Positions 38,217-56,406 of a stretch of 64,000 nucleotides of DNA are shown in pieces; positions within the stretch are counted from its first letter, which is position 1; the number at the start of each line of letters is the position of its first letter. The notes below the pieces were generated by a model. It did no database searches. It worked only from the letters and a program-made list of their open reading frames with translations, and was not told the origin of the DNA. Location of the stretch: contig CACZQB010000038.1 in NCBI GenBank assembly GCA_902783255.1, positions 5,458 through 69,457 on the forward strand, given 5' to 3'. The translations under genes were made by a program, and so were the position numbers. The DNA comes from Oscillospiraceae bacterium. GTDB lineage: Bacteria > Bacillota > Clostridia > Oscillospirales > UBA644.

Positions 38217-38245
38217 TTGACTTGAAAAATCGTAAATGATAAAAT
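38217..38245 (+). promoter_or_regulatory. Sigma-70-type promoter of the corrinoid uptake / B12 operon
   Basis: TTGACT (38217-38222), 17 nt, TAAAAT (38240-38245), preceded by TGa (extended -10). This leaves a leader of about 110 nt before the ATG at 38359. Confidence 0.6.
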
Positions 38246-38358: not shown

Positions 38359-39516
38359 ATGAAAAAAATCATTTGCCTTGCTCTTGCAGCCATAATGGTT
38401 CTTGCCATTGCTGCATGCGGAGAAAACGGTGCGAAGTCCGATCAGGAACTTGCCGACGAGGCAGCAAAACTTATCGATGCTATCTATGTTCAGGAAAGAA
38501 CTGATAAAACAGATGAGCAGTGCACAGCAGCAAAAGCTGCCTGGGATGCGCTTACGGATGCTCAGAAAGAGCTTGTAAGCGGCGAATACGCAGATCCGGA
38601 TTATTTCGGAAGAGATACGGGTGATGCTTCGGCTGATGATCCGCTCAATGCAGACGAGATAGGAAATAAAGAAATTCTTGTCGTAAGTTTCGGCACATCA
38701 TTCAACAACAGCCGCGCGACGGATATAAAAGGGATCGAAGATGCTGTTGCAAAAGCATTTCCGGACTGGTCTGTAAGACGCGCCTTCACGGCACAGATCA
38801 TTATCAACCATATCCAGGCGCGTGACGGCGAAAAAATAGACAACATGACCCAGGCTCTTGACCGTGCGGTCGCAAACGGAGTTGAAACTCTTGTTGTTCA
38901 GCCCACACATCTTATGCACGGTGCTGAATACGACGAACTTACAGGGGTACTCGATCAGTATAAAGACAAAATAGCCACCATAGTTGTTGCCGAACCTTTA
39001 CTCGGTGCGGTCGGTTCAGACGCTTCTGAAATAAATGAAGATAAAAAGAACGTGGCTGTCGCAATTGCCGATGCAGCAAGAAAAGACGGAAGTTTCACTA
39101 CTCTTGATGCCGTAGAGGAATCCGGTACTGCTTTTGTGTTTATGGGCCACGGCACATCACATACCGCCAAAATTACATATTCCCAGATGCAGGCTCAGAT
39201 GGATGAACTCGGATATAAGAACGTTTTTATAGGCACTGTTGAAGGCGAACCTGAAGAAACTTCATGTGAAGAGATCATAAATCGTGTTCATGAGGCGGGA
39301 TATAAAAATGTCGTTCTGCGTCCTCTCATGGTAGTTGCGGGAGATCACGCCAATAACGATATGGCAGGCGAAGACGAAGATTCATGGATAAGCATGTTCG
39401 CGGCCTCTGGTTATTTTGATAATCTGTCTACTCAGATTGCAGGCCTCGGCAGACTTACAGCTGTTCAGGAACAGTATATTGCCCATACTCAGGCTGCGAT
39501 CGACTCTATTGGATGA
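38359..39516 (+). CDS. cbiK: Lipoprotein-anchored (exported) CbiK-family class II chelatase homolog
   Basis: 385 aa. Signal peptide plus lipobox MKKIICLALAAIMVLAIAAC, a linker of about 100 aa, then a CbiK fold with VVQPTHLMHGAEY and FVFMGHGTSH His-containing blocks. GGAGGA RBS. Confidence 0.7.
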   Translation: MKKIICLALAAIMVLAIAACGENGAKSDQELADEAAKLIDAIYVQERTDKTDEQCTAAKAAWDALTDAQKELVSGEYADPDYFGRDTGDASADDPLNADEIGNKEILVVSFGTSFNNSRATDIKGIEDAVAKAFPDWSVRRAFTAQIIINHIQARDGEKIDNMTQALDRAVANGVETLVVQPTHLMHGAEYDELTGVLDQYKDKIATIVVAEPLLGAVGSDASEINEDKKNVAVAIADAARKDGSFTTLDAVEESGTAFVFMGHGTSHTAKITYSQMQAQMDELGYKNVFIGTVEGEPEETSCEEIINRVHEAGYKNVVLRPLMVVAGDHANNDMAGEDEDSWISMFAASGYFDNLSTQIAGLGRLTAVQEQYIAHTQAAIDSIG

Positions 39517-39531: not shown

Positions 39532-40299
39532 TTGAAAAAATTTCTTATTTTAATTATTCTGGCAGTGGCATTCGCTCTTTCGTCATGCAGCAATGCCGCA
39601 GATCAGACTGAGAATAAACCGCTTCTCAGGGATGGGGTTTACTCTGCGAAATTCACCACCGACGGCTCTATGTTTCATGTAAATGAAGCATACAAAGGCA
39701 GAGGAATACTGACCGTAAAAGACGGAACAATGACGATCCATATCACCATGCCTTCAAAAAATACCGTAAACCTTTTTGCCGGGAAAGCAGAGGATGCGCA
39801 GAAAAACGGAGCGCTCCTTATTGCCCCCACAGTCGATACTGTTACTTATGAAGACGGAATGCAGGAAGAAGTATTCGGTTTTGATCTTCCCGTCCCGTAT
39901 ATCGGCGAAGAATTTGACTGTGCTCTAGTAGGCACGAAGGGCAAATGGTACGATCATAAAGTTTCAGTCGATGATCCCGTGAGAATTATTGAAGACGGGG
40001 AGTATACCGTAAATGTTACACTGTCGGGAGGCGCAGGCAAAGCATCTGTAGATTCGCCCGCTAAACTTATTGCAGAAAACGGGGTATATACTGCCGAGCT
40101 TGTATGGAGCAGTCCCAATTACGAATATGTAGTTGTTGACGGAGTTCAGTATGACAGGCTCGACAGAGAGGGCAATTCCGCTTTTCTTATCCCGGTTCGC
40201 ATAGACGAGGAGATCAGGATCAGCGCTCTCACAACGGCAATGAGTACTCCTCACCTTATTGAATACACTCTGTTTTTTGACGGTGAAACGATAGAGTAA
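39532..40299 (+). CDS. Two-domain surface lipoprotein of unknown function (possible tetrapyrrole-binding beta-sandwich repeats)
   Basis: 255 aa with a TTG start and lipobox AFALSSC. There are two tandem domains of about 110 aa, each opening with DG.Y and ending in beta-strand-like ...V/FD. I recognise no confident family. Confidence 0.5.
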   Translation: MKKFLILIILAVAFALSSCSNAADQTENKPLLRDGVYSAKFTTDGSMFHVNEAYKGRGILTVKDGTMTIHITMPSKNTVNLFAGKAEDAQKNGALLIAPTVDTVTYEDGMQEEVFGFDLPVPYIGEEFDCALVGTKGKWYDHKVSVDDPVRIIEDGEYTVNVTLSGGAGKASVDSPAKLIAENGVYTAELVWSSPNYEYVVVDGVQYDRLDREGNSAFLIPVRIDEEIRISALTTAMSTPHLIEYTLFFDGETIE

Positions 40300-40302: not shown

Positions 40303-41457
40303 ATGAATAACAAAATGCGTACCGGATTATTGTCGGTTTTCATGATCATCGCCGTTGCGATACTCAGTTTATCCGGATGTAATACAGTTCATGCAAAAGA
40401 CGAAAAATCCGGGCAGATGCCGGCATTTCTGTACAGTATGCCGCTTGACTATGCCTCTCAGTTTTCCGTTGATTGTTACGAAAACGGATATAAACTGCTG
40501 TCTTTTGCGAACGGAGACCGTATTTTTATGGTTCCCGAAGGAGCGGATATTCCTTCGGGACTTGACGAAGGAACAAAAATACTGAAATGTCCGGTTAGCA
40601 GTATTTACCTTGCCGCCACATCGGCAATGAGTCTTTTTGATTCACTCGGAATACTTGACGTTATCAGGCTCTCAGGCACTCAGGCAGACGGCTGGTATAT
40701 CGACAACGCCAAAAAAGCAATGACAGAAGGGAAGATCGTATACGCAGGCAAATACAATCAGCCCGACTACGAGCTTATTACCTCCGAAAAATGTCCTCTG
40801 GCAGTCGAGTCGATGATGATAGGTCATGCATCCGATATAAAAGAGCAGCTTGAAAACCTCGGAATTATTGTTCTTACGGATCAGTCGAGCAATGAACCTC
40901 ATCCTCTCGGCCGCGCTGAATGGATAAAGCTTTACGGCGCGATATTCGATAAGGAAGATACAGCTGAGAACGCATTCGGTGAACAAAAAAAATACCTCGA
41001 TGATATTTCTATGAAGGAAACGACCGGTAAGACCGTTGCATTTTTTTATGTCAGCTCCTCCGGAAGAATCGTTGTAAGAAAAAGCGAGGACTATGTCAGC
41101 AAAATGATCTCTCTTGCGGGCGGCAGATATGTTTTTGCGGAAATTGGGGATAATACAACAAAAACATCTTCTGTTACCATCGATCCCGAGGCGTTTTACG
41201 CATCAGCGCATAATGCAGATATTCTGATATATAATTCAACAATAGGCAGCGAGATCAGGTCTCTTGATGAACTTATTGAAAAATGTGAGCTTCTTGCCGA
41301 TTTTGATGCCGTTAAAAACGGAAATGTATGGTGCACGCAGAAAAATATGTACCAGGAAACAATGTCGCTCGGTGCTATGATAAACAGTTTTTACGAAATA
41401 TTTTCTGATAATTCCGGAAATCTTGAAGAAGTACCTTATTTATTTAAATTAAAATAA
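40303..41457 (+). CDS. ABC substrate-binding lipoprotein, cluster A (BtuF/FecB/heme-siderophore-B12 type), copy 1
   Basis: 384 aa with lipobox LSLSGC and the blocks YASQFSVDCYENGYKLL and HPLGRAEWIKLYGAIF. Confidence 0.75.
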   Translation: MNNKMRTGLLSVFMIIAVAILSLSGCNTVHAKDEKSGQMPAFLYSMPLDYASQFSVDCYENGYKLLSFANGDRIFMVPEGADIPSGLDEGTKILKCPVSSIYLAATSAMSLFDSLGILDVIRLSGTQADGWYIDNAKKAMTEGKIVYAGKYNQPDYELITSEKCPLAVESMMIGHASDIKEQLENLGIIVLTDQSSNEPHPLGRAEWIKLYGAIFDKEDTAENAFGEQKKYLDDISMKETTGKTVAFFYVSSSGRIVVRKSEDYVSKMISLAGGRYVFAEIGDNTTKTSSVTIDPEAFYASAHNADILIYNSTIGSEIRSLDELIEKCELLADFDAVKNGNVWCTQKNMYQETMSLGAMINSFYEIFSDNSGNLEEVPYLFKLK

Positions 41458-41484: not shown

Positions 41485-42672
41485 ATGAAAAAATTCAATC
41501 TTAAAGCAATTTCAATGCTGCTTGCGGTTGTAATGCTTTTAACAGTATTTGCTGCTTGCTCAAACAATGATTCAAAACCCGAAAACAACGATAATGCAAC
41601 CGAACAGTCACAGCAGAATGAGCAGACCGAAGAAAACTATGACGGCAAACTCGTATTCGATCATTCAATGGAACTCAAGTATGCAAAATGCTTCTCCGTT
41701 GATTACTATAAGGGCGGATACAAGCTTATAAAACTTGTTGACGATTCCGCAATTCTCGTTGTTCCCGAAGGAATGAGCGTTCCGGCAGATAAACCTGAAA
41801 ACGCAGTAGTACTTCAGCAGCCCGTATCAAACATTCTTGTTTCATCCACACCTGTCACATCTCTTATAAATTCCATCGGCGCGCTTGATTCCATATCTCT
41901 TACAACATACGATGCCGATTCGTGGTATATTGACGATGTAAAACAGGCGATCCTCGACGGCAAAATCACCTATATCGGCGATTATAAAGCTCCGGACTAT
42001 GAAATGATCACTGCTGCAGGCACAACTTTCGCATTTTTCTCAACAATGCTCACAGACGATGTCAAAGAGCAGCTTCAGAATATAGGCGTAGACGTTATCC
42101 TTGACCAGTCTGCTCAGGAAGATCATCCCCTCGCAAGAGTTGAATGGGCAAAACTTTACGGCGCGATTTTCAATAAAGAGGATAATGCCGAAACTGTGTT
42201 CAATACCCAGGCAAACTATGTTGACGAGCTCTCAAAACTTGAAAAAACGGGCAAAACCGTCGCCATGTTCTATATAACGTCAAAAGGTGTTCTCTATGCA
42301 AGAAATGCGGATGACTACATGGCAAAAATGATAGCTCTTGCAGGTGGCGATTATGTTCTTTCAGATGTCGGAGTCGGTGAGACCGGAACCGTGAAAATGG
42401 AAATGGAAGCATTTTTCGACAAAGCAAAAGACGCCGACTATATAGTGTATATCTGGTCAATGGGCGGAAAACCCGAAACTCTTGCCGCATTTACCGAAAG
42501 AGCAGAGATCCTCGGTGATATGAAAGCAGTAAAAGAAGGAAATGTATGGTGCACAACACCCGATTATTTCCAGATTCAAAACACGATAGGCAGTATGATA
42601 AACGATATCAGACTTATGATGGATGCAGATGCTTCGACCGATAATCTGACCTATCTGTTCCGTCTTAAATAA
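41485..42672 (+). CDS. ABC substrate-binding lipoprotein, cluster A, copy 2 (paralog of 40303-41457)
   Basis: 395 aa with lipobox TVFAAC. Colinear with copy 1 (YAKCFSVDYYKGGYKLI, HPLARVEWAKLYGAIF, GNVWCT). Confidence 0.75.
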   Translation: MKKFNLKAISMLLAVVMLLTVFAACSNNDSKPENNDNATEQSQQNEQTEENYDGKLVFDHSMELKYAKCFSVDYYKGGYKLIKLVDDSAILVVPEGMSVPADKPENAVVLQQPVSNILVSSTPVTSLINSIGALDSISLTTYDADSWYIDDVKQAILDGKITYIGDYKAPDYEMITAAGTTFAFFSTMLTDDVKEQLQNIGVDVILDQSAQEDHPLARVEWAKLYGAIFNKEDNAETVFNTQANYVDELSKLEKTGKTVAMFYITSKGVLYARNADDYMAKMIALAGGDYVLSDVGVGETGTVKMEMEAFFDKAKDADYIVYIWSMGGKPETLAAFTERAEILGDMKAVKEGNVWCTTPDYFQIQNTIGSMINDIRLMMDADASTDNLTYLFRLK

Positions 42673-43712
42673 TGGGCACTCTCAATAAAAACAATAATAC
42701 GAATACCATGCGGTTCTGCATGGTATTCGTGTCATTTATTATTCTGTATATCATTGCAGTTTTCTGGAATATTATGAGCGGAAGCGTTAATATTTCGGTC
42801 TCTGAAATGGCAGATATCATCTTTAATGGCAACGCAACAAACTCTGTTGCTTACAACGTGATCTGGAAGATCCGTCTTCCGAGACTCATGCTTGCGTCTC
42901 TTCTTGGCGGAGCGCTTTCGCTTTCAGGTTTTCTTATTCAAACTTTTTTCAGAAATCCAATCGCAGGCCCGTTCGTTCTCGGTATATCATCGGGTGCAAA
43001 AATGTTCCTTGCCATCGTTACGATAGCAATGAACGGTTTTTTCAGCAGTATGCCGCTTTCTGTTACCGTTATTGCGTCTTTTGTAGGCTCACTGCTGTCA
43101 ATGCTGCTCGTTCTTCTCTTTACCGGCAGAGTAAAAAACATGTCAATGCTTCTTGTTATCGGTATTATGATAAGTTACATATGCTCCGCCGTAACCGACT
43201 TGCTGATAAACTTCGCGAATGAATCTGATATCGTAAATCTTACGCATTGGTCTCTCGGCAGCTTTTCCGCTGCGTCATGGCAGGATGTAAAAATATCCGC
43301 TTTTATAATCATTCCGTCGTTTATCGCTATTTTCTGTTTTTCAAAGCCGATGTTCGCATATTCTCTCGGCGAGGAATATGCTCAAAGTCTGGGACTAAAC
43401 GTAAAGCTTTTCAGAGCTTTTCTGGTTATCGCCACAGGCATTCTTTCAGCATGTGTCGTTTCGTTTGCAGGACCGATTTCTTTCGTCGGCATCGCGGTCC
43501 CTCATATAGCAAGAATGGTTCTTAAAACATCAAAGCCTATAATAATGATACCCGCAACGTTTTTGCTCGGCGCGTTTTTCTGCGTTATCTGCGATCTTGC
43601 CGCAAGAATGCTTTTTTCGCCTACGGAGCTTTCGATCAGCACCGTTACAAGCGTTATCGGGGCGCCGATAGTTATCTGGCTGATGATCTCAAGGAGAAAA
43701 AATGGAAACTGA
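42672..43712 (+). CDS. FecCD/BtuC family ABC permease
   Basis: 346 aa polytopic protein with the FecCD-type block RLPRLMLASLLGGALSLSGFLIQTFFRNPIAGPFVLGISSGA. Confidence 0.85.
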   Translation: MGTLNKNNNTNTMRFCMVFVSFIILYIIAVFWNIMSGSVNISVSEMADIIFNGNATNSVAYNVIWKIRLPRLMLASLLGGALSLSGFLIQTFFRNPIAGPFVLGISSGAKMFLAIVTIAMNGFFSSMPLSVTVIASFVGSLLSMLLVLLFTGRVKNMSMLLVIGIMISYICSAVTDLLINFANESDIVNLTHWSLGSFSAASWQDVKISAFIIIPSFIAIFCFSKPMFAYSLGEEYAQSLGLNVKLFRAFLVIATGILSACVVSFAGPISFVGIAVPHIARMVLKTSKPIIMIPATFLLGAFFCVICDLAARMLFSPTELSISTVTSVIGAPIVIWLMISRRKNGN

Positions 43713-44898
43713 AAAGGAAAACACACGACTGAAGGCTGATGCTTTGACTGAAAAAAATTACGATCAATCCGGCATTCCAAAACTTGAAATGAATTCCGCC
43801 ACCGTCGGATATAATGGCGCCCCTTTGATCTCCGATATCAATATTTCGGTAGAAAAAGGGGAGATAGTATCTCTGATAGGACCAAACGGAGCAGGCAAGT
43901 CGACAATTCTTAAAAGTATCACGCGCCATCTTGCAATGATTGCCGGCACAGTCTATATAGACGGCAAAAATATGCGTGTAATGAGCGGAAGAGAAACGGC
44001 TCTCAAAATGTCAGTCATGCTTACAGATCGGCTGAAGCCGGATCTTATGACTTGCAGGGAACTCGTATCCGCAGGGCGTTATCCGTACACGGGAGGATTC
44101 GGACTTCTGTCTCAGAAAGATAAGGAAATAATCGAAAGATCTCTCGCCCGTGTAAACGCATCGGATATTGCCGATAAAGAGATAACTGCAATAAGCGACG
44201 GTCAGCGCCAGCGCGTTTTGCTCGCAAGGGCGCTTTGTCAGGAACCGGAAATAATCGTTCTTGACGAGCCTACATCATATCTTGACATTCGAAATAAAAT
44301 AGAGCTTCTCGATATCTTATCAGAAATGGCAAAAAAAGAAAAAATAGCCGTTATTATGAGTCTGCATGAGATCGATCTCGCAGAAAGGATCTCCGATAAG
44401 ATCGTATGCGTGAAGGGCGATCGTATATATTCATACGGCACAGCGTCGGAAATATTTTCGGATACGAATATCGCGTCTCTTTACGATATAAAAAAAGGCC
44501 ACTTTAATGCTCTTTTAGGCAGTATAGAGCTCAAAAAACCTCAGGGCGAAATAAAATGCTTTGTCGTTGGCGGCAACGGCACAGGTATTCCGTTTTACCG
44601 AGCATTGCAAAAGAAAGGAACGGCTTTTGCGGCTGGAATTCTACAAAAAAACGATATCGACTCTGCTGTCGCTCTTGCTCTGGCGTCGGAAATAGTTTTT
44701 TCGGATGCATTCTGCCCCATTACGCCCGAACAGGTTTGCAGAGCAAAACAGCTTATCGATTCCGTTATATTTCTTGCGGACTGCGGATGTGAAACGGGAG
44801 AATACAACAAAGAAAATGCGGCACTTATCGAGTACGCAAAAAAAACGGGGAAACATATTCTGACATCTCCCAAAGAAATTGCGGAGGCTGGATTATGA
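43702..44898 (+). CDS. ABC ATPase (FecE/BtuD type) with a C-terminal extension of about 130 aa and unknown function
   Basis: Walker A GPNGAGKST, signature ISDGQRQRV, Walker B IIVLDEPTS. Residues from about 265 to 398 (from about nt 44494) form an extra domain containing VVGGNGTG. Confidence 0.8.
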   Translation: METEKENTRLKADALTEKNYDQSGIPKLEMNSATVGYNGAPLISDINISVEKGEIVSLIGPNGAGKSTILKSITRHLAMIAGTVYIDGKNMRVMSGRETALKMSVMLTDRLKPDLMTCRELVSAGRYPYTGGFGLLSQKDKEIIERSLARVNASDIADKEITAISDGQRQRVLLARALCQEPEIIVLDEPTSYLDIRNKIELLDILSEMAKKEKIAVIMSLHEIDLAERISDKIVCVKGDRIYSYGTASEIFSDTNIASLYDIKKGHFNALLGSIELKKPQGEIKCFVVGGNGTGIPFYRALQKKGTAFAAGILQKNDIDSAVALALASEIVFSDAFCPITPEQVCRAKQLIDSVIFLADCGCETGEYNKENAALIEYAKKTGKHILTSPKEIAEAGL

Positions 44899-46262
44899 CT
44901 CAACCCCGTGTGCTTATTGCCGGTACCTCAAGCTCAAGCGGAAAAACAACTGCAGTCTGTGCGCTCCTGTCTCTTCTGAAGCGCAGAAGAATATCAGTCA
45001 GATCCTTCAAATGCGGACCTGATTATATCGATCCGATGTTTCACAGATCCGTGATCGGCATAAAGTGCTCTAACCTTGATCCGTTTTTTTGTGATGATGA
45101 TCTTCTCAGATATCTTCTTTTTGAAAATGCGGCAGGTAATCTTGCCGTCATAGAAGGAGTTATGGGGTACTATGACGGAACGGGTGATAACGGCTCTGAC
45201 AACAGCACATACTCCGTCGCAATAAAAACGGATTCACCGGTTATTATTGTCGTGAACGCTAAGGGAGCTTCGTCTTCGCTTTTAGCTGTTGTCGAGGGAT
45301 TTCTTAACTATCTTCCGAACAGCAATATCCGAGGTGTTCTTTTCAACAGAATGTCCTTGATGAACTACAAATACGTATGTTCGCTTATGAAAATGCGCTT
45401 TCGTGATTCCGTAATTCCCGTAGGGTATATTCCCGAACTTCCCGATGAGTGCCTTTTCCCGTCAAGACACCTCGGTCTTGTAACCGCTGCCGAAATAACG
45501 GATTTGCAGAAAAAACTTGATAAGATAGCCGATATATGTGAAAATACCATAGACATAGACGCGGTTCTTTCCATTGCAGATAAAGCAGGAAGGCTCAACT
45601 GCACATCCCCGGCAGTTCCGGCGCACGAAAAGATCAATATTGCAGCGGCATTTGATTCTGCTTTTTGCTTTTATTACAGCGATAATTTTGATCTTCTGAA
45701 AAAAATGGGAGCGGAAATAACGTTTTTTTCACCGCTGAAAAACGAACCTGTTCCGCGGAATGCGGATGGACTCCTGCTGGGCGGCGGTTATCCGGAGCTT
45801 TATACCGATATCCTCGAAAAAAACGAAATATCCAAAAACAGCATTTTAAACAGTATTGAAAGCGGTATGCCTGCAATAGCCGAATGCGGCGGATTTCAGT
45901 ATCTCGGAAAGACTGTGGACGGTAAAAAAATGTGCGGGCTTTTTGACAGCGAAAGCTTTTCTGCAAACAAACTCGTCAGATTCGGCTATAATACCATAAC
46001 ATCCGAAAAAGACGGTATTTTCGGCAAGAAAGGTACCTCTTTCAAAGCACACGAATTTCATTACTGGGACAGCACTTTAAACGGAGACAGCTTTACTGCC
46101 GTAAAACCAAACGGCAAGAGCTGGAAATGCGCCTTTACCACAGATACGCTTTATGCCGGTTATCCTCATTTGTATCTTTGGTCAAACCTGCCGGCGGCAA
46201 ATAATTTTTACAATAAATGCCTGGAATACAAGGAGAGAAAAAATGATCATCAACGACCCTAA
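44895..46262 (+). CDS. cbiA: Cobyrinate a,c-diamide synthase
   Basis: 455 aa with GTSSSSGKTT and the glutamine amidotransferase block AECGGFQYLG. Confidence 0.9.
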   Translation: MTQPRVLIAGTSSSSGKTTAVCALLSLLKRRRISVRSFKCGPDYIDPMFHRSVIGIKCSNLDPFFCDDDLLRYLLFENAAGNLAVIEGVMGYYDGTGDNGSDNSTYSVAIKTDSPVIIVVNAKGASSSLLAVVEGFLNYLPNSNIRGVLFNRMSLMNYKYVCSLMKMRFRDSVIPVGYIPELPDECLFPSRHLGLVTAAEITDLQKKLDKIADICENTIDIDAVLSIADKAGRLNCTSPAVPAHEKINIAAAFDSAFCFYYSDNFDLLKKMGAEITFFSPLKNEPVPRNADGLLLGGGYPELYTDILEKNEISKNSILNSIESGMPAIAECGGFQYLGKTVDGKKMCGLFDSESFSANKLVRFGYNTITSEKDGIFGKKGTSFKAHEFHYWDSTLNGDSFTAVKPNGKSWKCAFTTDTLYAGYPHLYLWSNLPAANNFYNKCLEYKERKNDHQRP

Positions 46263-46860
46263 CGATATAGAAAAACGAAGCATGGAAATAATTGAGAGCG
46301 AGCTTAAAATTGACGTTCCCGACGAAAATAAGGCAGTAGTTAAAAGGGTTATACACTGCACGGCTGATTTCGACTACGCTGTCAACCTGCAGTTTTCCGA
46401 AAATGCCGTAAAGAAAGCTCTTGAGGCCCTGAAAAACGGCTGCACTATAGTCACGGATACCCAAATGGCAAAAGCAGGCATAAATAAGCCTGCCGCAGAG
46501 AAACTCGGATGCAGCGTTTTATGCTATATGAGTGATCCCGATGTCGCCGCCGCCGCAAAAGAGCATGGAGGAACGCGTGCGGCAGCTTCTATGGAAAAGG
46601 CCGCATCACTCGGCAGCAATGTTATTTTTGCGATCGGAAATGCGCCTACTGCATTGCTTAAACTTAAAGAGCTTGCAGATGAAGGCAGAATAGCCCCGAA
46701 ACTTATTATCGGCGTTCCCGTAGGCTTCGTAAACATTACAGAATCAAAAGAGGCGATCATGACGACTGATATCCCGTATATCGTTGCAAAGGGCCGCAAG
46801 GGCGGTTCAAATGTTGCCGCGGCGATCGTCAACGCACTGATGTATCAGCTTACAAGATAA
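46243..46860 (+). CDS. cbiC: Cobalt-precorrin-8 methylmutase
   Basis: VIHCTADFDYA block. I moved the start to MIINDPNDIE (46243), which has AAGGAGAG upstream. The track ORF starts at 46153, inside cbiA. Confidence 0.85.
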   Translation: MIINDPNDIEKRSMEIIESELKIDVPDENKAVVKRVIHCTADFDYAVNLQFSENAVKKALEALKNGCTIVTDTQMAKAGINKPAAEKLGCSVLCYMSDPDVAAAAKEHGGTRAAASMEKAASLGSNVIFAIGNAPTALLKLKELADEGRIAPKLIIGVPVGFVNITESKEAIMTTDIPYIVAKGRKGGSNVAAAIVNALMYQLTR

Positions 46861-47999
46861 TGGACAGTTTTATTACAAAAGACGGAAAACGTCTTCGCAG
46901 AGGATATACTACCGGTTCGTGCGCCGCCGCTGCCGCAAAAGCCGCAGCGATCATGCTCTTTGAAAACAGGAAACTCGATAAAGTATATCTTTTAACGCCG
47001 AACGGAACAGGTCTGTATATCGCTGTTCACGATATCGTCAGAGATAAAAATACCGTTTCCTGTTCAGTCGTAAAAGACAGCGGAGACGACCCCGATATTA
47101 CGAACGGAATAAAAGTTTTCGCAAAAGTCGAAAAAAAAGACGGAATAAATGAGATCACCGTCTGCGGCGGCGAAGGCGTCGGGGTAGTAACGAAGCCGGG
47201 CCTCGACCAGCCTGTAGGCAATCATGCGATCAATTCAACACCGAGAAGAATGATCAAGCAAGAACTTTTAAAAGTCTGTGAAGATAACGGATATAACGGC
47301 GGACTGACTGTAACGATATCTGTTCCCGACGGAGTAAAGATCGCTGAAAAAACATTTAATCCGAGGCTAGGCATAATCGGCGGTATCTCTGTTCTCGGAA
47401 CGACCGGTATCGTTGAACCCATGAGCGACGACGCCGTAGTCGAAACTATACGTACCGAGCTTTCTCTTCGCAGAGCGGAGGGAAAGACGTCGGTATTGTT
47501 TGCGCCGGGTAATTACGCGATGGATTTTATAAGGGACGAGCTTCATTTGAACGCCGAAATAGCAGTAACAACGTCAAATTTTATCGGTGATGCTCTTACT
47601 CTTGCCTCGGAAGAGGGGTTTGCATACGCACTTCTTGTGGGACATGTCGGAAAACTTATAAAGCTTGCCGGCGGATTATTCAATACTCACTCACGATGGG
47701 GCGACTGCCGTGCGGAAATATTTGCCGCCCACGCAGGTATGAACGGCGCAGATGCGGAAACCGTAAAACAGATCATGCAGAGCGCTATGACGGACGATAT
47801 TATCTCGATCACCGAAAAAGCGGGTATTTACGGAAATGTCATGCGAAGTGTCATGGCAAAAATAGATGACAACATATCGCACCGCCAGCTTGGTAAAATG
47901 AAAACAGGTGTTATCATGTTTTCAAAAATATACAGTTCACTCGGCACAACGCCTGATGCTGAAGAAATTCTCGAAATTATTCGAAAGGAATATACATAA
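46860..47999 (+). CDS. cbiD: Cobalt-precorrin-5B C1-methyltransferase
   Basis: 379 aa with the LRRGYTTGSCAAAAAKAA N-terminus typical of CbiD. Confidence 0.9.
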   Translation: MDSFITKDGKRLRRGYTTGSCAAAAAKAAAIMLFENRKLDKVYLLTPNGTGLYIAVHDIVRDKNTVSCSVVKDSGDDPDITNGIKVFAKVEKKDGINEITVCGGEGVGVVTKPGLDQPVGNHAINSTPRRMIKQELLKVCEDNGYNGGLTVTISVPDGVKIAEKTFNPRLGIIGGISVLGTTGIVEPMSDDAVVETIRTELSLRRAEGKTSVLFAPGNYAMDFIRDELHLNAEIAVTTSNFIGDALTLASEEGFAYALLVGHVGKLIKLAGGLFNTHSRWGDCRAEIFAAHAGMNGADAETVKQIMQSAMTDDIISITEKAGIYGNVMRSVMAKIDDNISHRQLGKMKTGVIMFSKIYSSLGTTPDAEEILEIIRKEYT

Positions 48000-48754
48000 T
48001 GGTACATATTGTCGGGGCGGGCTGCGGCGCGCCGGATCTGATTACTCTTCGCGGAAAAAAACATCTCGAAAATGCCGATGTTATCATATACGCGGGATCG
48101 CTTGTCAACGCCGAACTCCTTTCTTTTGCAAAAAAAGATTGTGATATTTACGACAGCGCAAAAATGACCCTTGAAGAAATAATAAATGTGATCGTTTCCG
48201 CCGAAAGCGAAAACAAAACGACCGTGCGTCTTCATACGGGAGACCCGTCTCTTTACGGCGCAATAGGCGAGCAGATCCGCGAATTCAGCATACACGGTAT
48301 AGAATACGATATCACACCCGGTGTAAGTTCTTTTTCAGGCGCTGCGTCCTCGCTGAAAACCGAGTATACGCTTCCCGATGTATCGCAGACAGTTATTATC
48401 ACGCGAGCATCAGGCAATACGTCGGTCCCCGATTCGGAAAATCTCGTTTCACTTGCGAAACACCGCGCAACAATGGTCCTCTTTCTAAGTACCGGTCTTC
48501 TCGATAAGGTGACAAAAGAGCTTATCGAAGGCGGATATTCTCCCGATACACCTGCCGCCATAGTGTATAAAGCAACATGGGCGGACGAAAAGGTGTTTCG
48601 ATGCACAGTTTCAACGCTTAAAAAAACAGCAGAAGAAAACAAAATAACAAAAACCGCGCTTATAACAGTAGGCGATTTTCTGACAAGTGATTTTTCAAGA
48701 TCACATCTTTATGATCCTGATTTTTCAACAGAATTCCGTGAGGCTAAAAAGTGA
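47999..48754 (+). CDS. cbiF: Cobalt-precorrin-4 C11-methyltransferase
   Basis: 251 aa with VGAGCGAPDLITLRG...VIIYAGSLVN. Confidence 0.85.
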   Translation: MVHIVGAGCGAPDLITLRGKKHLENADVIIYAGSLVNAELLSFAKKDCDIYDSAKMTLEEIINVIVSAESENKTTVRLHTGDPSLYGAIGEQIREFSIHGIEYDITPGVSSFSGAASSLKTEYTLPDVSQTVIITRASGNTSVPDSENLVSLAKHRATMVLFLSTGLLDKVTKELIEGGYSPDTPAAIVYKATWADEKVFRCTVSTLKKTAEENKITKTALITVGDFLTSDFSRSHLYDPDFSTEFREAKK

Positions 48755-49767
48755 ATGTAAGTATTTTCTGCTATTCCGAATCAGGTTCTCATATCGCAAA
48801 GGATCTTTGCGATATGTTTGGTCTTTCATATAAATCAGTTCACTCAATAGAAAAATTCGCGTCAAAATACGGATTTGTTTCGCACAAAAGTATTTCTTCG
48901 GATATTGAACCGTTGTTTAACGCCGGCGGCGCACTTATATTTATAGGCGCATGCGGGATTGCGGTGAGAACAATAGCCCCTTATGTGAAAAGCAAAACGA
49001 CCGATCCTGCTGTTATAGTTATAGACGACCAGAAAAAATTCATCATTCCGATTCTGTCGGGGCATATCGGCGGCGCAAATGAACTGACAAGAAAACTCGC
49101 TGAAAAAACAGGTTCTCTTGCCGTGATCACCACCGCTACGGACGGAGCGAGCAGATTTTCCTGCGATACCTGGGCTTTTACGCATAACTGCGCTCTCTCT
49201 TCAATGAAAACAGCAAAAGATGTGTCAGCGGCAATTCTTGAAAACGATATTCCCGTTTCCTCGGAATTTCTGCTGCCGAAATCTCTTCCGTCAGGGCTTT
49301 TCCCAGGAAATAACGGTGAAACAGGTATTTATATCGGTATAAAAAAGGCGTCTCCGTATTCAAATACATTACGTATTATACCCAGAGTCCTTACAGTCGG
49401 TATAGGCTGCAGAAAAGGCGCAAAAAAAGAAGATATATCATGTGCAGTCAGAGCAGTTTTTGAGAAAGCAGGATTGGATTTAAAAGCAGTAAAGAGTATT
49501 GCTTCCATAGATGTGAAGAAAAATGAAGAGGGTCTTCTCTTTTTTGCGGATGAATTGAATATTCCCGCGGTTTTTTTCAGCGCCGATGAACTAAACTCGG
49601 TCAAAGGCGATTTTGAAGATTCGGAATTCGTAAAAAAAACTGTCGGTACGGGAAATGTCTGCGAACGTTCCGCAGCGCTTGCCGGAGGCAGAATCATAAT
49701 CAAAAAAACTGTTGAAAACAGCGTTACGATTGCAGTTGCGCAGAGCGATTGGGAGGTCATATTTTGA
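48751..49767 (+). CDS. cbiG: Cobalt-precorrin-5A hydrolase
   Basis: 338 aa with CbiG N-, middle and C-domain architecture, in the conserved position between cbiF and cbiH. Confidence 0.8.
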   Translation: MNVSIFCYSESGSHIAKDLCDMFGLSYKSVHSIEKFASKYGFVSHKSISSDIEPLFNAGGALIFIGACGIAVRTIAPYVKSKTTDPAVIVIDDQKKFIIPILSGHIGGANELTRKLAEKTGSLAVITTATDGASRFSCDTWAFTHNCALSSMKTAKDVSAAILENDIPVSSEFLLPKSLPSGLFPGNNGETGIYIGIKKASPYSNTLRIIPRVLTVGIGCRKGAKKEDISCAVRAVFEKAGLDLKAVKSIASIDVKKNEEGLLFFADELNIPAVFFSADELNSVKGDFEDSEFVKKTVGTGNVCERSAALAGGRIIIKKTVENSVTIAVAQSDWEVIF

Positions 49768-50495
49768 AGAAAATATATGTAGTCGGCATAGGAGCCGGTA
49801 ATTATGACGGAATGACGGTCGGCGCCGTCAGAACACTCGAAAAAGTCGATGTAATAGTGGGATACACAGTATATATCGACCTTATAAAACCTTTTTTTGC
49901 AACAAAAACGTTTATATCCACACCTATGATGAAAGAGACAGAGAGGTGCAGGATCGCGCTTGAAAAAGCGGCGGAAGGAAAGACCGTTGCCATGATATGC
50001 TCCGGCGATGCGGGTATTTACGGCATGGCGTCTCCGATCCTCGAACTGGCGGAGGAATACGGAGTAGAAACCGAAATTATTGCAGGGGTAACTGCAGCTT
50101 CTTCCGGCGCAGCGCTTTTGGGTTCTCCCATAACATGCGATTTTGCCGTTATCAGCCTTTCTGATCTTCTCACTCCCTACGAAACAATAATAAACAGAGT
50201 TGAAAACATTGCAAAAGCAGACATGTGCATGGTTATTTATAATCCGTCAAGCCGCAAACGTTCGGATTATATGCAGCGCGTGTGCGAGATAATTCTTAAA
50301 TATCGTTCTTCAAACACTGTATGCGGCATCTGCCGCAATATAGGCAGAGAGGGACAGGATTACGAAATAACTACTCTGTCTGAACTGACAACAAAGGAAA
50401 TTGATATGTTCACGACTGTATTTATAGGCAATTCAACAACAAAAGTCGTTAACGGCAGAATGGTTACGCCTCGGGGATACAGTTATGAAAAATAA
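49764..50495 (+). CDS. cbiH: Cobalt-factor III / precorrin-3B C17-methyltransferase
   Basis: KKIYVVGIGAGNYDGMT...VIVGYTVYIDL. The likely start is the TTG at 49764, 7 nt after GGGAGG. The track start is 49749. Confidence 0.85.
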   Translation: MKKIYVVGIGAGNYDGMTVGAVRTLEKVDVIVGYTVYIDLIKPFFATKTFISTPMMKETERCRIALEKAAEGKTVAMICSGDAGIYGMASPILELAEEYGVETEIIAGVTAASSGAALLGSPITCDFAVISLSDLLTPYETIINRVENIAKADMCMVIYNPSSRKRSDYMQRVCEIILKYRSSNTVCGICRNIGREGQDYEITTLSELTTKEIDMFTTVFIGNSTTKVVNGRMVTPRGYSYEK

Positions 50496-52446
50496 GATCT
50501 GTGTATTTGCAGGCACTACAGAGGGCAGAAGAATAGCTGAGATTTTAAACGGGGCGGCTGATATTACCGTATGCGTTGCAACGGAATACGGCGAAGTACT
50601 GCTTGACCATATAAACGGAATAACCGTTCATACGGGAAGACTCGACGAGGCTGAAATGGAAATGTTTTTTAAAAACAACGATTTCGAACTCATTATCGAC
50701 GCCACTCACCCGTATGCGGTAATTGCAACAAATAATATCCGCCTTGCCGCAGAAAAATGCGGCGTCAGACTTATGCGCATTTTGCGCAGTCCCGAAAATC
50801 ATGAAGCCAAGGCAGTTTATGTATCGTCAGTTACGGAGGCAAGAGATTATCTTTTAAACAGAGAGGGCAATATCCTTCTTACAACAGGTTCAAAAGAACT
50901 CTCTTTTTATGTCGGGCTCGATATGCAAAAAGTCTGGGCGCGCGTCTTGCCGTCCCATTCTTCACTTGATCTGTGTGAAAAAGCCGGCATTCCTTCATCG
51001 CATATCATAGCGGCTCAGGGACCTTTTTCGTATGATATAAATATAGCGCAGCTTAGAATGATAAATGCCGAATATCTTGTTACAAAAGCATCCGGAACGA
51101 GCGGAGGATATGAGGAAAAAATAAAGGCAGCACTTGATTTCGGGGCAGTTCCCGTTATTATCGGAGAACCGCCGCAGGATTTCGGGTACACTCTTGATGA
51201 GGCGATCGAAGAGCTTGAAAAAAAATACAATATTCAAAAAAGAGTTATTAACATAATCGGCATGGGACCGGGCAGCGAAAATCTTCTTACGGTTGAGGCA
51301 AAAAACGCATTGAGCGAATGCGATGCGATAATAGGGGCACAATCGGTCGTGAACGGAATATCTTTAAGAAAGCCGGTCTTTTTTGAGTTTTTGCCCGAAA
51401 AAGTCATGGCTGTTTTAGCAAACAATCCCTCTCTCCGTAAAATTGCCGTTATTATGCGAGGCGATACGGGTTTTTTCAGCGGAACAAAAAAAATGACAGA
51501 TGCTTTCCGTAACGAATGCGTCCGTATATTCCCGGGCATTTCGTCTGTTTCCGTCTTTGCTGCGAAACTTGCCATAAACTGGGATGACGCCGCTCTTGTG
51601 AGCATGCACGGACGTTATCACAATATCGTTCATACAGTCCGAGAAAACAAAAAAACGGTCGTTCTTGCTGGAGGAAGCAATTCTGCGGACGTAATATTGA
51701 AAAAACTGTCCGGCTATGGCTTCAATTCTCTGAATGCGGCGGTAGGCGAAAAGCTTACATACGAAGATGAAAAAATATCTGTCGGCACTGTGGGCGAACT
51801 GAAAGACAGAAAATATGACGATTTGTCTCTTGTATATATTGAAAATCCCGAACCGCAAAATATAATGCGGATAGGAATTGACGACTCTGAATTCATTCGC
51901 GGCGATGTTCCTATGACAAAATCCAATGTGCGCGCCGTTTCGGTCGCCGAGCTCTCGCTTGCGTCAGATTCCGTTGTATGGGATGTCGGGGCGGGAACCG
52001 GATCGGTTTCCGTTGAATGTGCTCTTTGCGCGTTTGACGGAACGGTTTATGCCGTTGAAAAAGAAGATGACGCCGTAAATCTCATCAGTCAGAACAAAAT
52101 AAAATTCTTTGCCGACAATATCGAAATAATAAAAGGAAAAGCGCCCGATGTCCTTGCAGGTCTGCCGTCACCTACGCATGTTTTTATCGGCGGCAGCGGC
52201 GGAACACTTTGCGAAACCATAAAAACCGTTCTCCTGAAAAATAAAGATGCGAAAATAGTCATCAATACCGTTACACTTGAATCGTATCATGAAGCATATG
52301 AATGTGCTGAAAAGTTCGGATTCAGAGATTTCAGATGTATATCGGTCAATATTTCCCGCAGCCGGAAGATTGACAGATACAATATGATGTGCGCACAGAA
52401 TCCCGTAACGGTTTTTGTAATGCAGGGAGGAAAGAACTTTGGTTAA
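50485..52446 (+). CDS. cbiJ-cbiET: Triple fusion: cobalt-precorrin-6A reductase (CbiJ), precorrin-6B C5,15-methyltransferase (CbiE) and the decarboxylating C12-methyltransferase (CbiT)
   Basis: 653 aa. Residues 1 to about 250 are CbiJ-like (KICVFAGTTEGR). Residues about 252-460 are CbiE-like (VINIIGMGPGS). From about 463 onward it is CbiT-like (GDVPMTKSNVRAV...WDVGAGTGSVS). Confidence 0.8.
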   Translation: MKNKICVFAGTTEGRRIAEILNGAADITVCVATEYGEVLLDHINGITVHTGRLDEAEMEMFFKNNDFELIIDATHPYAVIATNNIRLAAEKCGVRLMRILRSPENHEAKAVYVSSVTEARDYLLNREGNILLTTGSKELSFYVGLDMQKVWARVLPSHSSLDLCEKAGIPSSHIIAAQGPFSYDINIAQLRMINAEYLVTKASGTSGGYEEKIKAALDFGAVPVIIGEPPQDFGYTLDEAIEELEKKYNIQKRVINIIGMGPGSENLLTVEAKNALSECDAIIGAQSVVNGISLRKPVFFEFLPEKVMAVLANNPSLRKIAVIMRGDTGFFSGTKKMTDAFRNECVRIFPGISSVSVFAAKLAINWDDAALVSMHGRYHNIVHTVRENKKTVVLAGGSNSADVILKKLSGYGFNSLNAAVGEKLTYEDEKISVGTVGELKDRKYDDLSLVYIENPEPQNIMRIGIDDSEFIRGDVPMTKSNVRAVSVAELSLASDSVVWDVGAGTGSVSVECALCAFDGTVYAVEKEDDAVNLISQNKIKFFADNIEIIKGKAPDVLAGLPSPTHVFIGGSGGTLCETIKTVLLKNKDAKIVINTVTLESYHEAYECAEKFGFRDFRCISVNISRSRKIDRYNMMCAQNPVTVFVMQGGKNFG

Positions 52447-53413
52447 ACTGCTTATTCTTCAAACGGCGGCAATCATAGTGGGATTTATAATCGATTTTTT
52501 TGTCGGAGACCCTTATTCCATCCCTCATCCTGTCGTCTATATAGGCAAATGGATTTCTTTTTTTGATAAAAAATTTCGTCGCGGAGAACCGAAAAGCGAT
52601 TTCCGATACGGCATCGTTACGGTTTTACTTGTAACCGCAATATCAACGGTAATTCCCACAGCAGTTCTGTTAGCGGCATGGGTCATTCATCCCGTTTTGT
52701 ATTTTGTGATCAACTGTATAATGTGCTGGCAGCTCCTCGCAGCAAGACAACTTGTAAAAGAAAGCATGAAGGTTTGCGGCGAACTGAAAAATGGCGATAC
52801 CGAAGCGGCGAGAAAAGCTGTCTCATATATTGTCGGAAGAGATACCGATGTTCTTGATAAAAACGGCATTTGCAGGGCGGCGGTTGAAACGGTTGCCGAA
52901 AATACATCGGACGGCGTAACAGCGCCACTTATCTGGATATTCCTTTTCGGCGCAGTCGGCGGATTTTTTTACAAATCCGTCAATACCATGGACTCTATGA
53001 TAGGTTATAAAAACGAAAAATATCTTTATTTCGGCAGGGCTGCGGCAAAAACCGACGATTTCTGCAATTTTATTCCTTCAAGGATATCTGCTTTTCTTAT
53101 GATTTTCGCATGTCCGTTTTGCAAACTTGATATGAAAAACGCATACAGGATTTTCCGTCGCGACAGAATGAAGCATGCAAGCCCCAATTCTGCACAGACC
53201 GAGTCCGTTTGTGCCGGCGCCCTCGGTGTCCGTTTGGCAGGAGATGCGGTTTACGGCGGGGTAGTGCATAAAAAAGAGTATATAGGCGATTTTTTACGTG
53301 AAATAGAACCGGACGACATAAAAAAAACAGGCAGTCTTATGTATGCGGCGTCTTTTATCATGCTTCTTGTCGGTGTAATTCTGAGAACGGCGGTGATCCT
53401 GATTTGCTTATAA
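52439..53413 (+). CDS. cbiB: Adenosylcobinamide-phosphate synthase
   Basis: 324 aa membrane protein with a TTG start after GGGAGGAAAG. Shows the CbiB/CobD pattern FFVGDPYSIPHPV. Confidence 0.85.
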   Translation: MVKLLILQTAAIIVGFIIDFFVGDPYSIPHPVVYIGKWISFFDKKFRRGEPKSDFRYGIVTVLLVTAISTVIPTAVLLAAWVIHPVLYFVINCIMCWQLLAARQLVKESMKVCGELKNGDTEAARKAVSYIVGRDTDVLDKNGICRAAVETVAENTSDGVTAPLIWIFLFGAVGGFFYKSVNTMDSMIGYKNEKYLYFGRAAAKTDDFCNFIPSRISAFLMIFACPFCKLDMKNAYRIFRRDRMKHASPNSAQTESVCAGALGVRLAGDAVYGGVVHKKEYIGDFLREIEPDDIKKTGSLMYAASFIMLLVGVILRTAVILICL

Positions 53414-54444
53414 ACAGATCAAATCCTCACGGAGGGGATATTTACAACAACAGAGTGTTATATGATTTTTCATCAAATCTCAATCCCGCAGGTATGCCTG
53501 ATGCCGTAAAAAAAGCGGTCGCGGAATCGGCAGAACTCAGTTTGCGCTATCCCGATGCGTTTTGCCACGAACTCAGGAAAAAAATCTCTGAGTCGGAAAA
53601 AATACCGTATGAACGTATCATATGCGGCAACGGCGCCGCAGAGCTTATCTATTCGTATGCGTATTCTTTAAACAAAAATAAGCCTGCGCTGATAATCTCG
53701 CCTACATTTTGCGAATATGAAAACGCTCTCAGAGCAGCCGGTATCGAAACAAAACATCTGATCCTTTCGGAAGATAACGGATTTTGCCTGACCGAAGAGC
53801 TTATACCGGATGATCTTTCGGAATATTGCTCCGTTTTTGTCTGTTCTCCCAATAACCCGACGGGAATGACGGTAAAGAACGAAATACTCGTTAAACTTTG
53901 CAATTTATCAACCCGTGTTTTTGCGGACCTTTGTTTTCTTGATCTCTCAGACTGCCCGGATATATACGATATTACGGGGCTGACCGAAAAATATTCCGGA
54001 CTTACCGTTCTGAAAGCTTTCACGAAAAACTATTCAATGGCAGGTATAAGGCTTGGTTATGCTATGTGTTCAGACGGTGCTTTCCTTGAAAAAATGTCTG
54101 AAAAAACACAGTGCTGGAATGTTTCCGAAACAGCGCAGCAGGCAGGTGTCGCGGCGCTTGACTGTGTCGAATGGCTTAACTCTTCCGTGAAAATGATAAA
54201 AGAGGAAAGAAAGCGTGTTTTTGAAGCAGTTTCATCAGTCGGAATAAAAGTGTTCCGGGGTAGTGCCAATTTTCTTCTGCTTCATTCCGAACTCGATCTT
54301 AAAACACTGCTCCTGAAAAAGGGAATACTTATACGTGACTGTTCCAATTATATCGGTCTGTCAAAAGGATATTACCGCATAGCGATAAGAAAGAAAGAAG
54401 AAAACGATATACTTATATCTGCTCTGAAAGAGGTCGTCGAATGA
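53404..54444 (+). CDS. cobD: L-threonine-O-3-phosphate decarboxylase (class I/II aminotransferase fold)
   Basis: 346 aa with NPHGGD near the N-terminus, SPNNPTG, and [14 protein letters not shown] (PLP lysine region). Confidence 0.8.
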
Positions 54445-56404: not shown

Positions 56405-56406
56405 AT

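Follow-up and report, generated by a model that had tools for sequence, protein, structure and literature searches.

An exported CbiK-type chelatase as the probable head of a tetrapyrrole uptake relay linked to cobamide synthesis in gut Clostridia

What does a cobalt chelatase do outside the membrane, at the head of a vitamin B12 operon? The question is raised by a 64,000-nucleotide stretch of contig CACZQB010000038.1 from an Oscillospiraceae bacterium (assembly GCA_902783255.1, positions 5,458 to 69,457), the whole of which is called the window here. An earlier reading of its letters and open reading frames (ORFs), the sequence-only reading, had described the first gene of a B12 operon as an exported lipoprotein of the CbiK family and as the sole chelatase homologue of that operon, and the same was found here within the window. 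This exported CbiK is very probably the head of a cobamide-linked tetrapyrrole uptake relay, widespread in gut Clostridia, by which the pathway is probably supplied with a scavenged precursor of B12.

The N-terminus of the protein was read as MKKIICLALAAIMVLAIAAC|GENG, with two lysines, a hydrophobic core and the lipobox IAAC, and a GGAGGA Shine-Dalgarno sequence lies 5' of codon 1. No in-frame ATG, GTG or TTG was found at codons 13-163 of the ORF. A full-length cytoplasmic isoform is therefore impossible by internal initiation, and such an isoform, which the sequence-only reading had already thought unlikely, was rejected. Among the 120 closest database homologues, whose catalytic parts are 70-100% identical, at least 113 retain the lipobox Cys. 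Because this residue is kept while the neighbouring signal sequence varies, the secretion signal is not a chance feature and is under selection. A pattern scan of one genome per GTDB species then located relatives in at least 568 species, counted among the first 600 pattern matches; the 80 best-scoring loci (not a random sample; L numbers below) were compared, with flanks of about 10 kb around the gene, by scoring them with the window's proteins. A lipobox was found at 64 of the 80, and 14 of the remaining 16 carry a signal peptide, 13 of type I and one with a variant lipobox. The N-terminus is cut off in the last two, so that a secretion signal is present in 78 of the 80 species. The proposal of an exported lipoprotein is thus borne out by the signal peptide, the lipobox and their conservation in relatives.

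The sequence-only reading had placed a linker of about 100 residues between the signal peptide and the CbiK fold. Instead, the variable linker is limited to aa 21-27 and is followed by a strongly conserved module. Its helices (aa 28-41 and 51-63 in the AlphaFold secondary structure) precede a coil, ADPDYFG...DDPxNxDxIG, and the invariant columns of the homologue alignment are IDAIYVQ, AKAAWDxLTDxQKxLV, ADPDYFG and DDPxNxDxIG. Of 97 representative clusters whose catalytic domain is complete, 59 have the module, and the short signal-less relatives lack it; it marks the exported CbiK clade. In a library of representatives at 50% identity, most of the best matches have several domains and are 450-1600 aa long. 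Distant members join the unit of module and CbiK domain to SLH repeats, choline-binding repeats, fn3 or F5/8-C domains, which are cell-wall or surface contexts, and in some of them the unit is duplicated in tandem. The SLH-anchored member, P0255, lies on a contig that carries that gene alone.

A complete CbiK-type fold, as had been proposed, follows the module. Pfam CbiK (PF06180) matched residues 104-381 with 235 bits, over profile positions 1-261 of 262. In phmmer searches against the PDB, the protein matched Salmonella enterica CbiK (1qgo, 1.4e-34), Porphyromonas gingivalis FetB (9b86, 1.5e-33) and Desulfovibrio vulgaris CbiK(P) (2xvx, 1.4e-26). Superposition of its AlphaFold model (pLDDT 82) with Foldseek gave TM values of 0.91 for 1qgo, 0.90 for 2xvx and 0.86 for 9b86. 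The metal ligands of the S. enterica enzyme, which we take to be H145, E175 and H207, align with H264 (in FMGHG), E295 (in TVEGE) and H330 (in AGDHA). Conservation of this triad reaches 96-98% over 212-220 aligned domain instances, as compared to a column mean of 0.72, and the Glu is conserved as strongly as both His. The sequence-only reading had named two His-containing blocks as metal-ligand regions; FMGHG does align with ligand H145, whereas VVQPTHLMHGAEY is conserved but does not belong to the presumed ligands. The window's CbiK is therefore predicted to be exported and lipid-anchored with an intact active site.

All members of the clade bear the database name sirohydrochlorin cobaltochelatase. 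However, the NCBIfam equivalog for biosynthetic CbiK (NF047852) gave 179 bits, which misses its cutoff of 400. The window's protein is within the CbiK superfamily by fold and active site, fails the biosynthetic equivalog by score and location, and should not be counted as an ordinary cytoplasmic B12 enzyme. The gene contexts of the nearest signal-less CbiKs (P0324, P0296, P0332 and P0355) are short contigs or metal homeostasis. Two further members of the representative library have CbiK domains of the clade in other fusions: in P0250 the domain (72% identical in its catalytic part, signal peptide absent) is joined to a CobW-type metallochaperone GTPase, and in P0378 to porphobilinogen deaminase. 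These two may be real cytoplasmic variants or assembly chimeras.

The exported CbiK opens a six-gene cassette that continues with a tandem NEAT-like lipoprotein, two binding proteins, a FecCD permease and an ATPase, with the cob genes directly after (Table 1). The NEAT-like protein was modelled with a pLDDT of 85.7, and its top Foldseek matches were the NEAT domains of IsdH N2N3, IsdB, IsdX1, Hbp2, Shp and IsdA (probability 1.0, per-domain TM 0.5-0.65). The fold search alone succeeded; a sequence search against the PDB gave no significant match, and Pfam NEAT scored 19 bits, below its cutoff of 32.8. Invariant residues are M47/F48/H49, H70, H142, Y197, M237, H241 and Y245. The canonical YxxxY is absent and is replaced by WYDH in domain 1 and HLIEY in domain 2, both of which we read in the model as lying on the last beta-strand. 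No LPXTG sortase motif was found in the protein, which is anchored as a lipoprotein, and its homologues are named "iron transporter" by NCBI. The NEAT-like protein is proposed to be a tetrapyrrole relay protein.

The nearest solved relative of the binding proteins is Lmo2184 (5joq, profile E = 3e-9), presumably the binding protein of the Listeria NEAT (Hbp) locus; neither BtuF nor IsdE was recovered by the PDB profile search at 1e-3. Most relatives have a single binding-protein copy, as compared to the two tandem paralogues at 40303-42672 of the window, and the duplication could reflect a widened or split ligand range. The best NCBIfam match of the permease is BtuC, at 212 bits and below the equivalog cutoff of 334. 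The ATPase matched the archaeal corrinoid ABC ATPase PRK09536 (NCBIfam) over positions 3-338 of 402, with 196 bits against a cutoff of 537, and its C-terminal extension resembles that of the archaeal corrinoid ATPase. A perfect hairpin with a 16-bp stem, ATACGAATACCATGCGGTTCTGCATGGTATTCGTGT, was also noted at 42697-42732, just 3' of the stop codon of the second binding protein. It overlaps alternative permease start sites used by gene callers and may act within the operon on translation or by attenuation.

Among the best 80 loci, the carriers are Lachnospiraceae, Oscillospiraceae and Ruminococcaceae, and a few metagenome-assembled genomes (MAGs) of Treponema/Spirochaetaceae; two further records bear the titles Bacteroidaceae (L089) and Thermoguttaceae (L062). 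Among the cultured carriers are Eubacterium ramulus ATCC 29099, Roseburia lenta NSJ-9, Gemmiger formicilis, Allofournierella massiliensis, Waltera hominis, Petralouisia muris, Kineothrix and several Blautia. On the same strand 3' of the exported CbiK, a NEAT-like protein was found at 61 loci, a binding protein at 63, a permease at 64 and an ATPase at 58, and many of the misses are contig ends. What follows the cassette varies: ring-contraction genes, the set cbiP-cobT-cobU-cobS-cobC-cbiB-cobD, or nothing related to cobamides. Since the cassette is steady while the adjacent cob genes change, the constant partner of the exported CbiK is the transporter.

Gene fusions, inferred from stop-to-stop reading frames, connect the parts of the cassette in line (Table 1). 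These in-frame fusions give the relay order as CbiK, NEAT domain 1, NEAT domain 2, binding protein and permease/ATPase, an order that follows the logic of the Isd haem relay. In eight species the ATPase is in one frame with CbiD or CbiP, which physically ties the importer to the pathway. A further arrangement was observed in L093, where positions 550-6755 hold a four-gene riboswitch-controlled operon. Its first gene encodes a lipoprotein composed of the module, CbiK and NEAT domain 1, and the others encode a binding protein of 507 aa, a FecCD permease and an ABC ATPase that carries a second, signal-less CbiK domain by fusion. A CbiK fold is thereby predicted on both sides of one importer. The ATPase-CbiK fusion was found in one representative cluster only.

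At three loci (Table 1) a side module consisting of cbiL, an ABC-2-type ATPase and an ABC-2 permease (MGIITVLWEKWTEF...) adjoins the cassette. In L053 and L088 it adds a protein with a single NEAT-like domain, and in L073 it contains a 533-aa SUMT-like fusion. The exporter next to cbiL might move a tetrapyrrole outward.

Regulation of the cassette in relatives points to cobamides. In L006 a cobalamin riboswitch (Rfam, 90.5 bits) lies directly 5' of the exported CbiK, and a second, divergent one serves the permease-ATPase-cbiA arm; Rfam also detected cobalamin riboswitches in L007 (35.4 bits) and L093 (77.8 bits). An iterative nhmmer profile, seeded from such elements of relatives and validated with Rfam, matched 150-500 nt 5' of the exported CbiK in 77 of the 80 loci. 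In a sample of 12 loci, Rfam at its gathering threshold recovered the element in 10, with scores of 61-116 bits. The presence of this element indicates that the cassette responds to cobamide status and not to iron or haem, and in relatives the cassette is predicted to be switched off by cobalamin via the riboswitch. In the window itself, Rfam found no cobalamin riboswitch at the gathering threshold over the whole length, nor any at E<=10 over 37900-38500, and no remnant was recovered 5' of the operon by blastn or by nhmmer seeded from relatives. Window positions 38069-38358 were compared with L011-L090. The closest relatives (L005, L007, L013, L022 and L060) have weak riboswitch variants in which CCACCATTACTG replaces CCGCCACTG, and L017 has none. 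With weak variants in the nearest relatives and no element in L017 or the window, the riboswitch seems to be decaying in the window's rumen lineage.

The cobamide genes follow the cassette without a break, in the order cbiA, cbiC, cbiD, cbiF, cbiG, cbiH, a cbiJ-cbiE-cbiT fusion, cbiB, cobD and cbiP, and then cobO, cobT, cobU, cobS, a 140-aa ORF and cobC. NCBIfam assigned cbiA to cbiJ-cbiE-cbiT and cobO; the other names from cbiB onward were given by ORF length, order and sequence, not by family models. No cbiL, uroporphyrinogen methyltransferase gene, sirC, second chelatase gene or cbiMNQO was found in the window, and tblastn with CbiL of relatives gave no match to it. A search for CbiM motifs detected no CbiM-type cobalt transporter in the window or within 10 kb at any of the 80 loci. 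Because CbiL, the uroporphyrinogen methyltransferase and SirC are likewise missing from the operon, its single chelatase is uninformative about the rest of the genome.

The nature of the cargo is suggested by relatives that salvage tetrapyrroles. In two Faecalibacterium MAGs (L023 and L086) and Gemmiger formicilis DFI.6.10 (L059), the riboswitch, exported CbiK, NEAT-like protein, binding protein and permease come first and are followed by an ATPase-CbiD fusion, cbiF, cbiG, cbiH, cbiJ and cbiET, with cbiA next in L059. The Faecalibacterium loci have cbiL, flanked by cbiD and cbiF; it was not recovered by search of the Gemmiger locus. The locus of a Hespellia MAG (L082) shares these genes, cbiL included, but their order differs slightly. 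No other chelatase was found in the Faecalibacterium, Gemmiger and Hespellia loci. Shelton et al. (2019, PMC6461909) classified 180 species, mostly host-associated Firmicutes, as tetrapyrrole precursor salvagers. Their Supplementary Table 10 lists F. prausnitzii A2-165 and KLE1255, G. formicilis ATCC 27749, Hespellia stercorisuis and many other Clostridia; the Faecalibacterium carrier loci studied here come from MAGs, whereas the F. prausnitzii strains on that list are cultured. According to that study, the listed strains lack 5-aminolevulinic acid (ALA) synthase, porphobilinogen (PBG) synthase, hydroxymethylbilane (HMB) synthase, uroporphyrinogen III synthase and precorrin-2 synthase and are predicted to need "precorrin-2". 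No uptake route was proposed there, and salvage of ALA alone was tested experimentally. P. gingivalis is likewise reported there to lack precorrin-2 synthesis. Since the enzymes just after cobalt insertion are kept and all earlier ones are lost, the cargo is placed at the level of sirohydrochlorin or cobalt-sirohydrochlorin, and CbiK is the fold for binding a compound of that level.

These loci also bear on predictions of B12 synthesis from genomes, where pipelines count any "CbiK" as a signature of de novo cobalt insertion. F. prausnitzii strains are scored as B12 prototrophs by Rodionov et al. (2019, PMC6593275), whereas among the butyrate producers of Soto-Martin et al. (2020, PMC7360928) strain A2-165 alone could not grow without cobalamin. 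Such mismatches between prototroph calls and growth could be explained by a CbiK that is exported and coupled to a transporter; its being counted as the biosynthetic chelatase may contribute to the prototroph calls. The cassette is a concrete and testable candidate for the uptake route of "precorrin-2" salvagers, and cultured carriers exist.

Comparison with known systems sets the CbiK apart from its biosynthetic namesake. The cytoplasmic sirohydrochlorin cobaltochelatase CbiK of the anaerobic B12 pathway in S. enterica (1qgo, 2xwp) shares the two-domain class II fold, the His/Glu/His ligands and the VSFGTS loop at about 31% identity. It has neither a signal peptide nor the N-terminal module, whereas the window's CbiK is held outside the membrane by its lipid anchor and has transport genes as partners. 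In Salmonella, cbiK lies beside cbiL and cbiMNQO in its operon. The window's CbiK belongs instead with the exported paralogues CbiK(P) and FetB/IhtB, whose physiological role is debated and which the sequence-only reading had rightly named as precedents, although it assigned the Porphyromonas homologue to an hmu locus and not to iht. CbiK(P) of D. vulgaris is a soluble periplasmic protein of a diderm, lacks the N-terminal module and a NEAT partner, and coexists with a cytoplasmic CbiK(C). It is reportedly an active cobaltochelatase. We take it to bind haem between subunits through His96, which aligns with an Asp in the window's CbiK. In Desulfovibrio, one B12 riboswitch controls cbiK-cbiL and btuCDF (PMC545781). 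FetB/IhtB of P. gingivalis, likewise a lipoprotein, is encoded in the ihtABCDE locus with a TonB receptor, a binding protein, a permease and an ATPase (PMC12094164), and it inserts cobalt and manganese into porphyrin in vitro (PMC13065792). FetB resides on the outer membrane, works with its TonB-dependent receptor, lacks the module and a NEAT partner, and has been read as a haem, iron or Mn-protoporphyrin protein with no reported link to a cobalamin riboswitch. The window's clade differs from both paralogues in its N-terminal module, monoderm lipoprotein anchoring, NEAT-like partner and near-universal cobalamin-riboswitch control in cob operons.

The transporter half resembles the Isd/Hbp haem systems rather than BtuFCD. 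In Staphylococcus aureus (IsdH/B/A/C-IsdE-IsdF) and Listeria (Hbp2-Lmo2184) the layout is the same, with NEAT proteins followed by a cluster-A binding lipoprotein, a FecCD permease and an ATPase; the NEAT fold was matched here and the nearest solved binding protein is Lmo2184. However, the NEAT proteins of those systems are sortase-anchored, whereas the window's is a lipoprotein of very diverged sequence, and the window's system is headed by a chelatase-fold protein, embedded in cob operons and, in relatives, under cobalamin-riboswitch control. The accessory proteins of BtuFCD in Bacteroides, BtuG (a beta-propeller) and BtuH, have folds unrelated to CbiK or the NEAT-like protein, and the window's binding protein is not detectably BtuF-like. 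The Bacteroides system is a riboswitch-controlled corrinoid importer whose extra surface lipoproteins form a multi-protein relay (PMC13616437), and the cassette of the relatives, with its riboswitch at 77 of the 80 loci, resembles it in this. Unlike BtuFCD, the operon content of precursor salvagers points to a pre-corrin cargo. As the sequence-only reading had supposed of a Gram-positive surface version, a full-text literature search found no description of a Gram-positive exported CbiK or of its NEAT/ABC arrangement.

From these observations a mechanism is proposed in which the surface CbiK domain would bind sirohydrochlorin (oxidised precorrin-2), supplied by the environment or possibly by the cell's own export, and would insert Co2+ at the cell surface. 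Class II chelatases work without ATP, so cobalt insertion can occur outside the cell. The new axial metal site would let the product pass from NEAT-like domain 1 to domain 2 and on to the binding protein. The permease and ATPase would then import cobalt-sirohydrochlorin, on which CbiL and the ring-contraction enzymes would continue in the cytoplasm, so that cobalt and macrocycle would enter the cell together. Such joint entry, if true, would explain B12 synthesis by precorrin-2 salvagers. Cobalt insertion outside into scavenged sirohydrochlorin, with the product relayed inward, is given somewhat less than an even chance on the present genomic evidence. With about the same chance, B12 cobalt insertion outside the membrane followed by NEAT/ABC import would occur in a large group of gut and rumen Clostridia and would be the missing route of precorrin-2 salvagers such as Faecalibacterium and Gemmiger. 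Insertion outside fits the absence of cbiMNQO near the 80 operons and of a cytoplasmic chelatase beside cbiL, and FetB demonstrates in vitro that cobalt insertion is within reach of an exported CbiK. The sequence-only reading had assigned the protein to scavenged tetrapyrroles, which stands, and had argued against cobalt insertion because that step is cytoplasmic in B12 synthesis; insertion outside fits at least as well.

Several observations weigh against insertion outside. The outer CbiK-NEAT lipoprotein and the signal-less CbiK on the ATPase in the single operon of L093 are easier to explain by chelation inside, with the outer domain serving for capture only. Pseudobutyrivibrio and Roseburia are listed as PBG/uroporphyrinogen III salvagers with precorrin-2 synthase (PMC6461909), so that sirohydrochlorin would be made inside the cell, and a SUMT-like gene adjoins the cassette in L073. 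The window's own operon has neither cbiL nor a riboswitch, and free sirohydrochlorin in gut or rumen fluid is the presumed supply. If insertion outside is confirmed, an ATP-independent surface chelatase would be new, as would a relay of NEAT type that carries a tetrapyrrole other than haem, and light would be shed on the unexplained exported CbiKs of Desulfovibrio and Porphyromonas.

The cargo might instead be a corrinoid, a reading on the unlikely side, in which the exported CbiK has been recruited as a surface receptor, without catalysis, of corrinoids in complete or incomplete form. Cobalamin, cobinamide, cobyric acid or cobyrinic acid would be candidates, the active-site histidines may serve as lower axial ligand to cobalt, and hand-over to the NEAT-like and binding proteins would resemble the role of BtuG/BtuH in Bacteroides. 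Riboswitch control and the neighbouring genes for a BtuC-like permease and a corrinoid-type ATPase agree with this, as do about 16 loci with cbiP-cobT-cobU-cobS-cobC-cbiB-cobD straight after the cassette, which is a late-intermediate salvage set, and about 25 with the cassette and no cob genes within 10 kb. Rodionov et al. (2019, PMC6593275) describe the late-intermediate salvage variants Acbr and Acbi and the import of both B12 and cobinamide by BtuFCD-type systems. However, loci with late genes only may run into ring genes beyond the 10-kb flank, and ring genes were seen further on in L036, L041, L055, L074, L075 and L077. The precorrin-2-type salvagers keep the ring-contraction genes from cbiD onward in the operon, with cbiL where identified, so that import of a finished corrin makes little sense. 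A triad Glu as conserved as the two His, a binding-protein profile that finds no BtuF in the PDB and an ATPase-CbiK fusion that points to the CbiK ligand as cargo also speak against a corrinoid. Capture without catalysis outside is an unlikely explanation as well. Metal-free sirohydrochlorin or precorrin-2 would be bound outside and receive its cobalt in the cytoplasm from a second chelatase, which would be part of an ATPase fusion or have its gene at another locus; in a variant, the exported domain would strip another metal, such as iron from sirohaem. The outer and inner CbiK domains of L093 favour this, and several early genes missing from the window's operon must lie elsewhere if the pathway is complete. 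NEAT domains are known to hold their ligand by an axial bond to the metal, so a metal-free cargo suits the relay poorly. No second chelatase was found within 10 kb at any of the 80 loci, cbiL-bearing ones included, and the ATPase-CbiK fusion is confined to its one cluster. FetB/IhtB has been described as a proposed reverse chelatase (PMC12094164), but FetB showed no dechelatase activity on haemin (PMC13065792).

Two other explanations would remove the system from precursor uptake altogether. Haem or iron acquisition of an Isd-like or FetB-like kind, merely adjoining cob genes, would suit the NEAT fold of the neighbouring protein, the weak IsdE and Lmo2184 similarity of the binding proteins, the NCBI label of the NEAT-like homologues, and the binding of metallated porphyrins by FetB and CbiK(P) (PMC12094164, PMC13065792). 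It is judged very improbable, because 77 of the 80 loci have a cobalamin riboswitch and not an iron- or haem-responsive element, and because the cassette is built into cob operons, with the ATPase fused to CbiD or CbiP in eight loci. The Asp at the position of the presumed CbiK(P) haem ligand argues in the same direction. That the protein is an ordinary cytoplasmic biosynthetic CbiK with a mis-read N-terminus, as its database name and its location in a cob operon would suggest, is scarcely credible in view of the 150 codons that offer no alternative start, the signal conserved across species, the wall-anchor fusions of distant members and the low equivalog score. Uptake of a scavenged precursor, headed by the exported CbiK, remains the preferred reading over both.

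Table 1. Features of the window (positions in the window unless a locus is named) and of related loci.
Feature	Position or loci	Strand	Remarks
Promoter-like site	38217..38245	+	TTGACT-17-TAAAAT, extended -10 TG, 10/12 matches
Exported CbiK ORF	38359..39516	+	385 aa, gene 1 of operon
Lipoprotein signal peptide MKKIICLALAAIMVLAIAAC	38359..38418	+	aa 1-20, lipobox IAAC, Cys20
Conserved N-terminal module	38440..38667	+	aa 28-103, helical hairpin then conserved coil
CbiK class II chelatase domain	38668..39516	+	aa 104-385 and stop codon
Metal triad	H264 39148-39150; E295 39241-39243; H330 39346-39348	+	from alignment to S. enterica CbiK
NEAT-like lipoprotein	39532..40299	+	255 aa, two tandem beta-sandwich domains (about aa 33-150 and 152-250)
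Substrate-binding lipoprotein 1	40303..41457	+	Peripla_BP_2, cluster-A type, 384 aa, Pfam 120.7 bits
Substrate-binding lipoprotein 2	41485..42672	+	paralogue, 45% identical to binding protein 1, cluster-A type
FecCD/BtuC-type ABC permease	42672..43712	+	Pfam FecCD 273 bits
ABC ATPase with C-terminal extension	43702..44898	+	Pfam ABC_tran; MJ0874-type domain, precomputed PF27219
Cobamide genes	44895..59779	+	cassette, then cob genes without break
CbiJ-CbiE-CbiT fusion	50485-52446	+	653 aa; same fusion in L005, L006, L007
140-aa ORF	58788-59210	+	between cobS and cobC, no NCBIfam match
Fusion of CbiK with NEAT domain 1 or both domains	21 loci		e.g. Roseburia lenta
Fusion of NEAT domain 2 or both with binding protein	18 loci		e.g. 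E. ramulus
Fusion of ATPase with CbiD	3 loci		Faecalibacterium L023, L086; Gemmiger L059
Fusion of ATPase with CbiP	5 loci		L039, L064, L069, L077, L080
Side module	L053 15205-18069		
Side module	L073 9529-11884		
Side module	L088 6607-9457	-	

The 140-aa ORF among the late cobamide genes has the N-terminus IIGGAYQGKLEYA, which resembles a degenerate CobU-type P-loop. Elsewhere in the window, positions 1-23372 hold a large capsular or exopolysaccharide locus that is unrelated to the exported CbiK and encodes CpsB, Wzz, a tyrosine-kinase-like ATPase, LytR-CpsA-Psr, several glycosyltransferases, Wzy, a pyruvyl transferase and a flippase.

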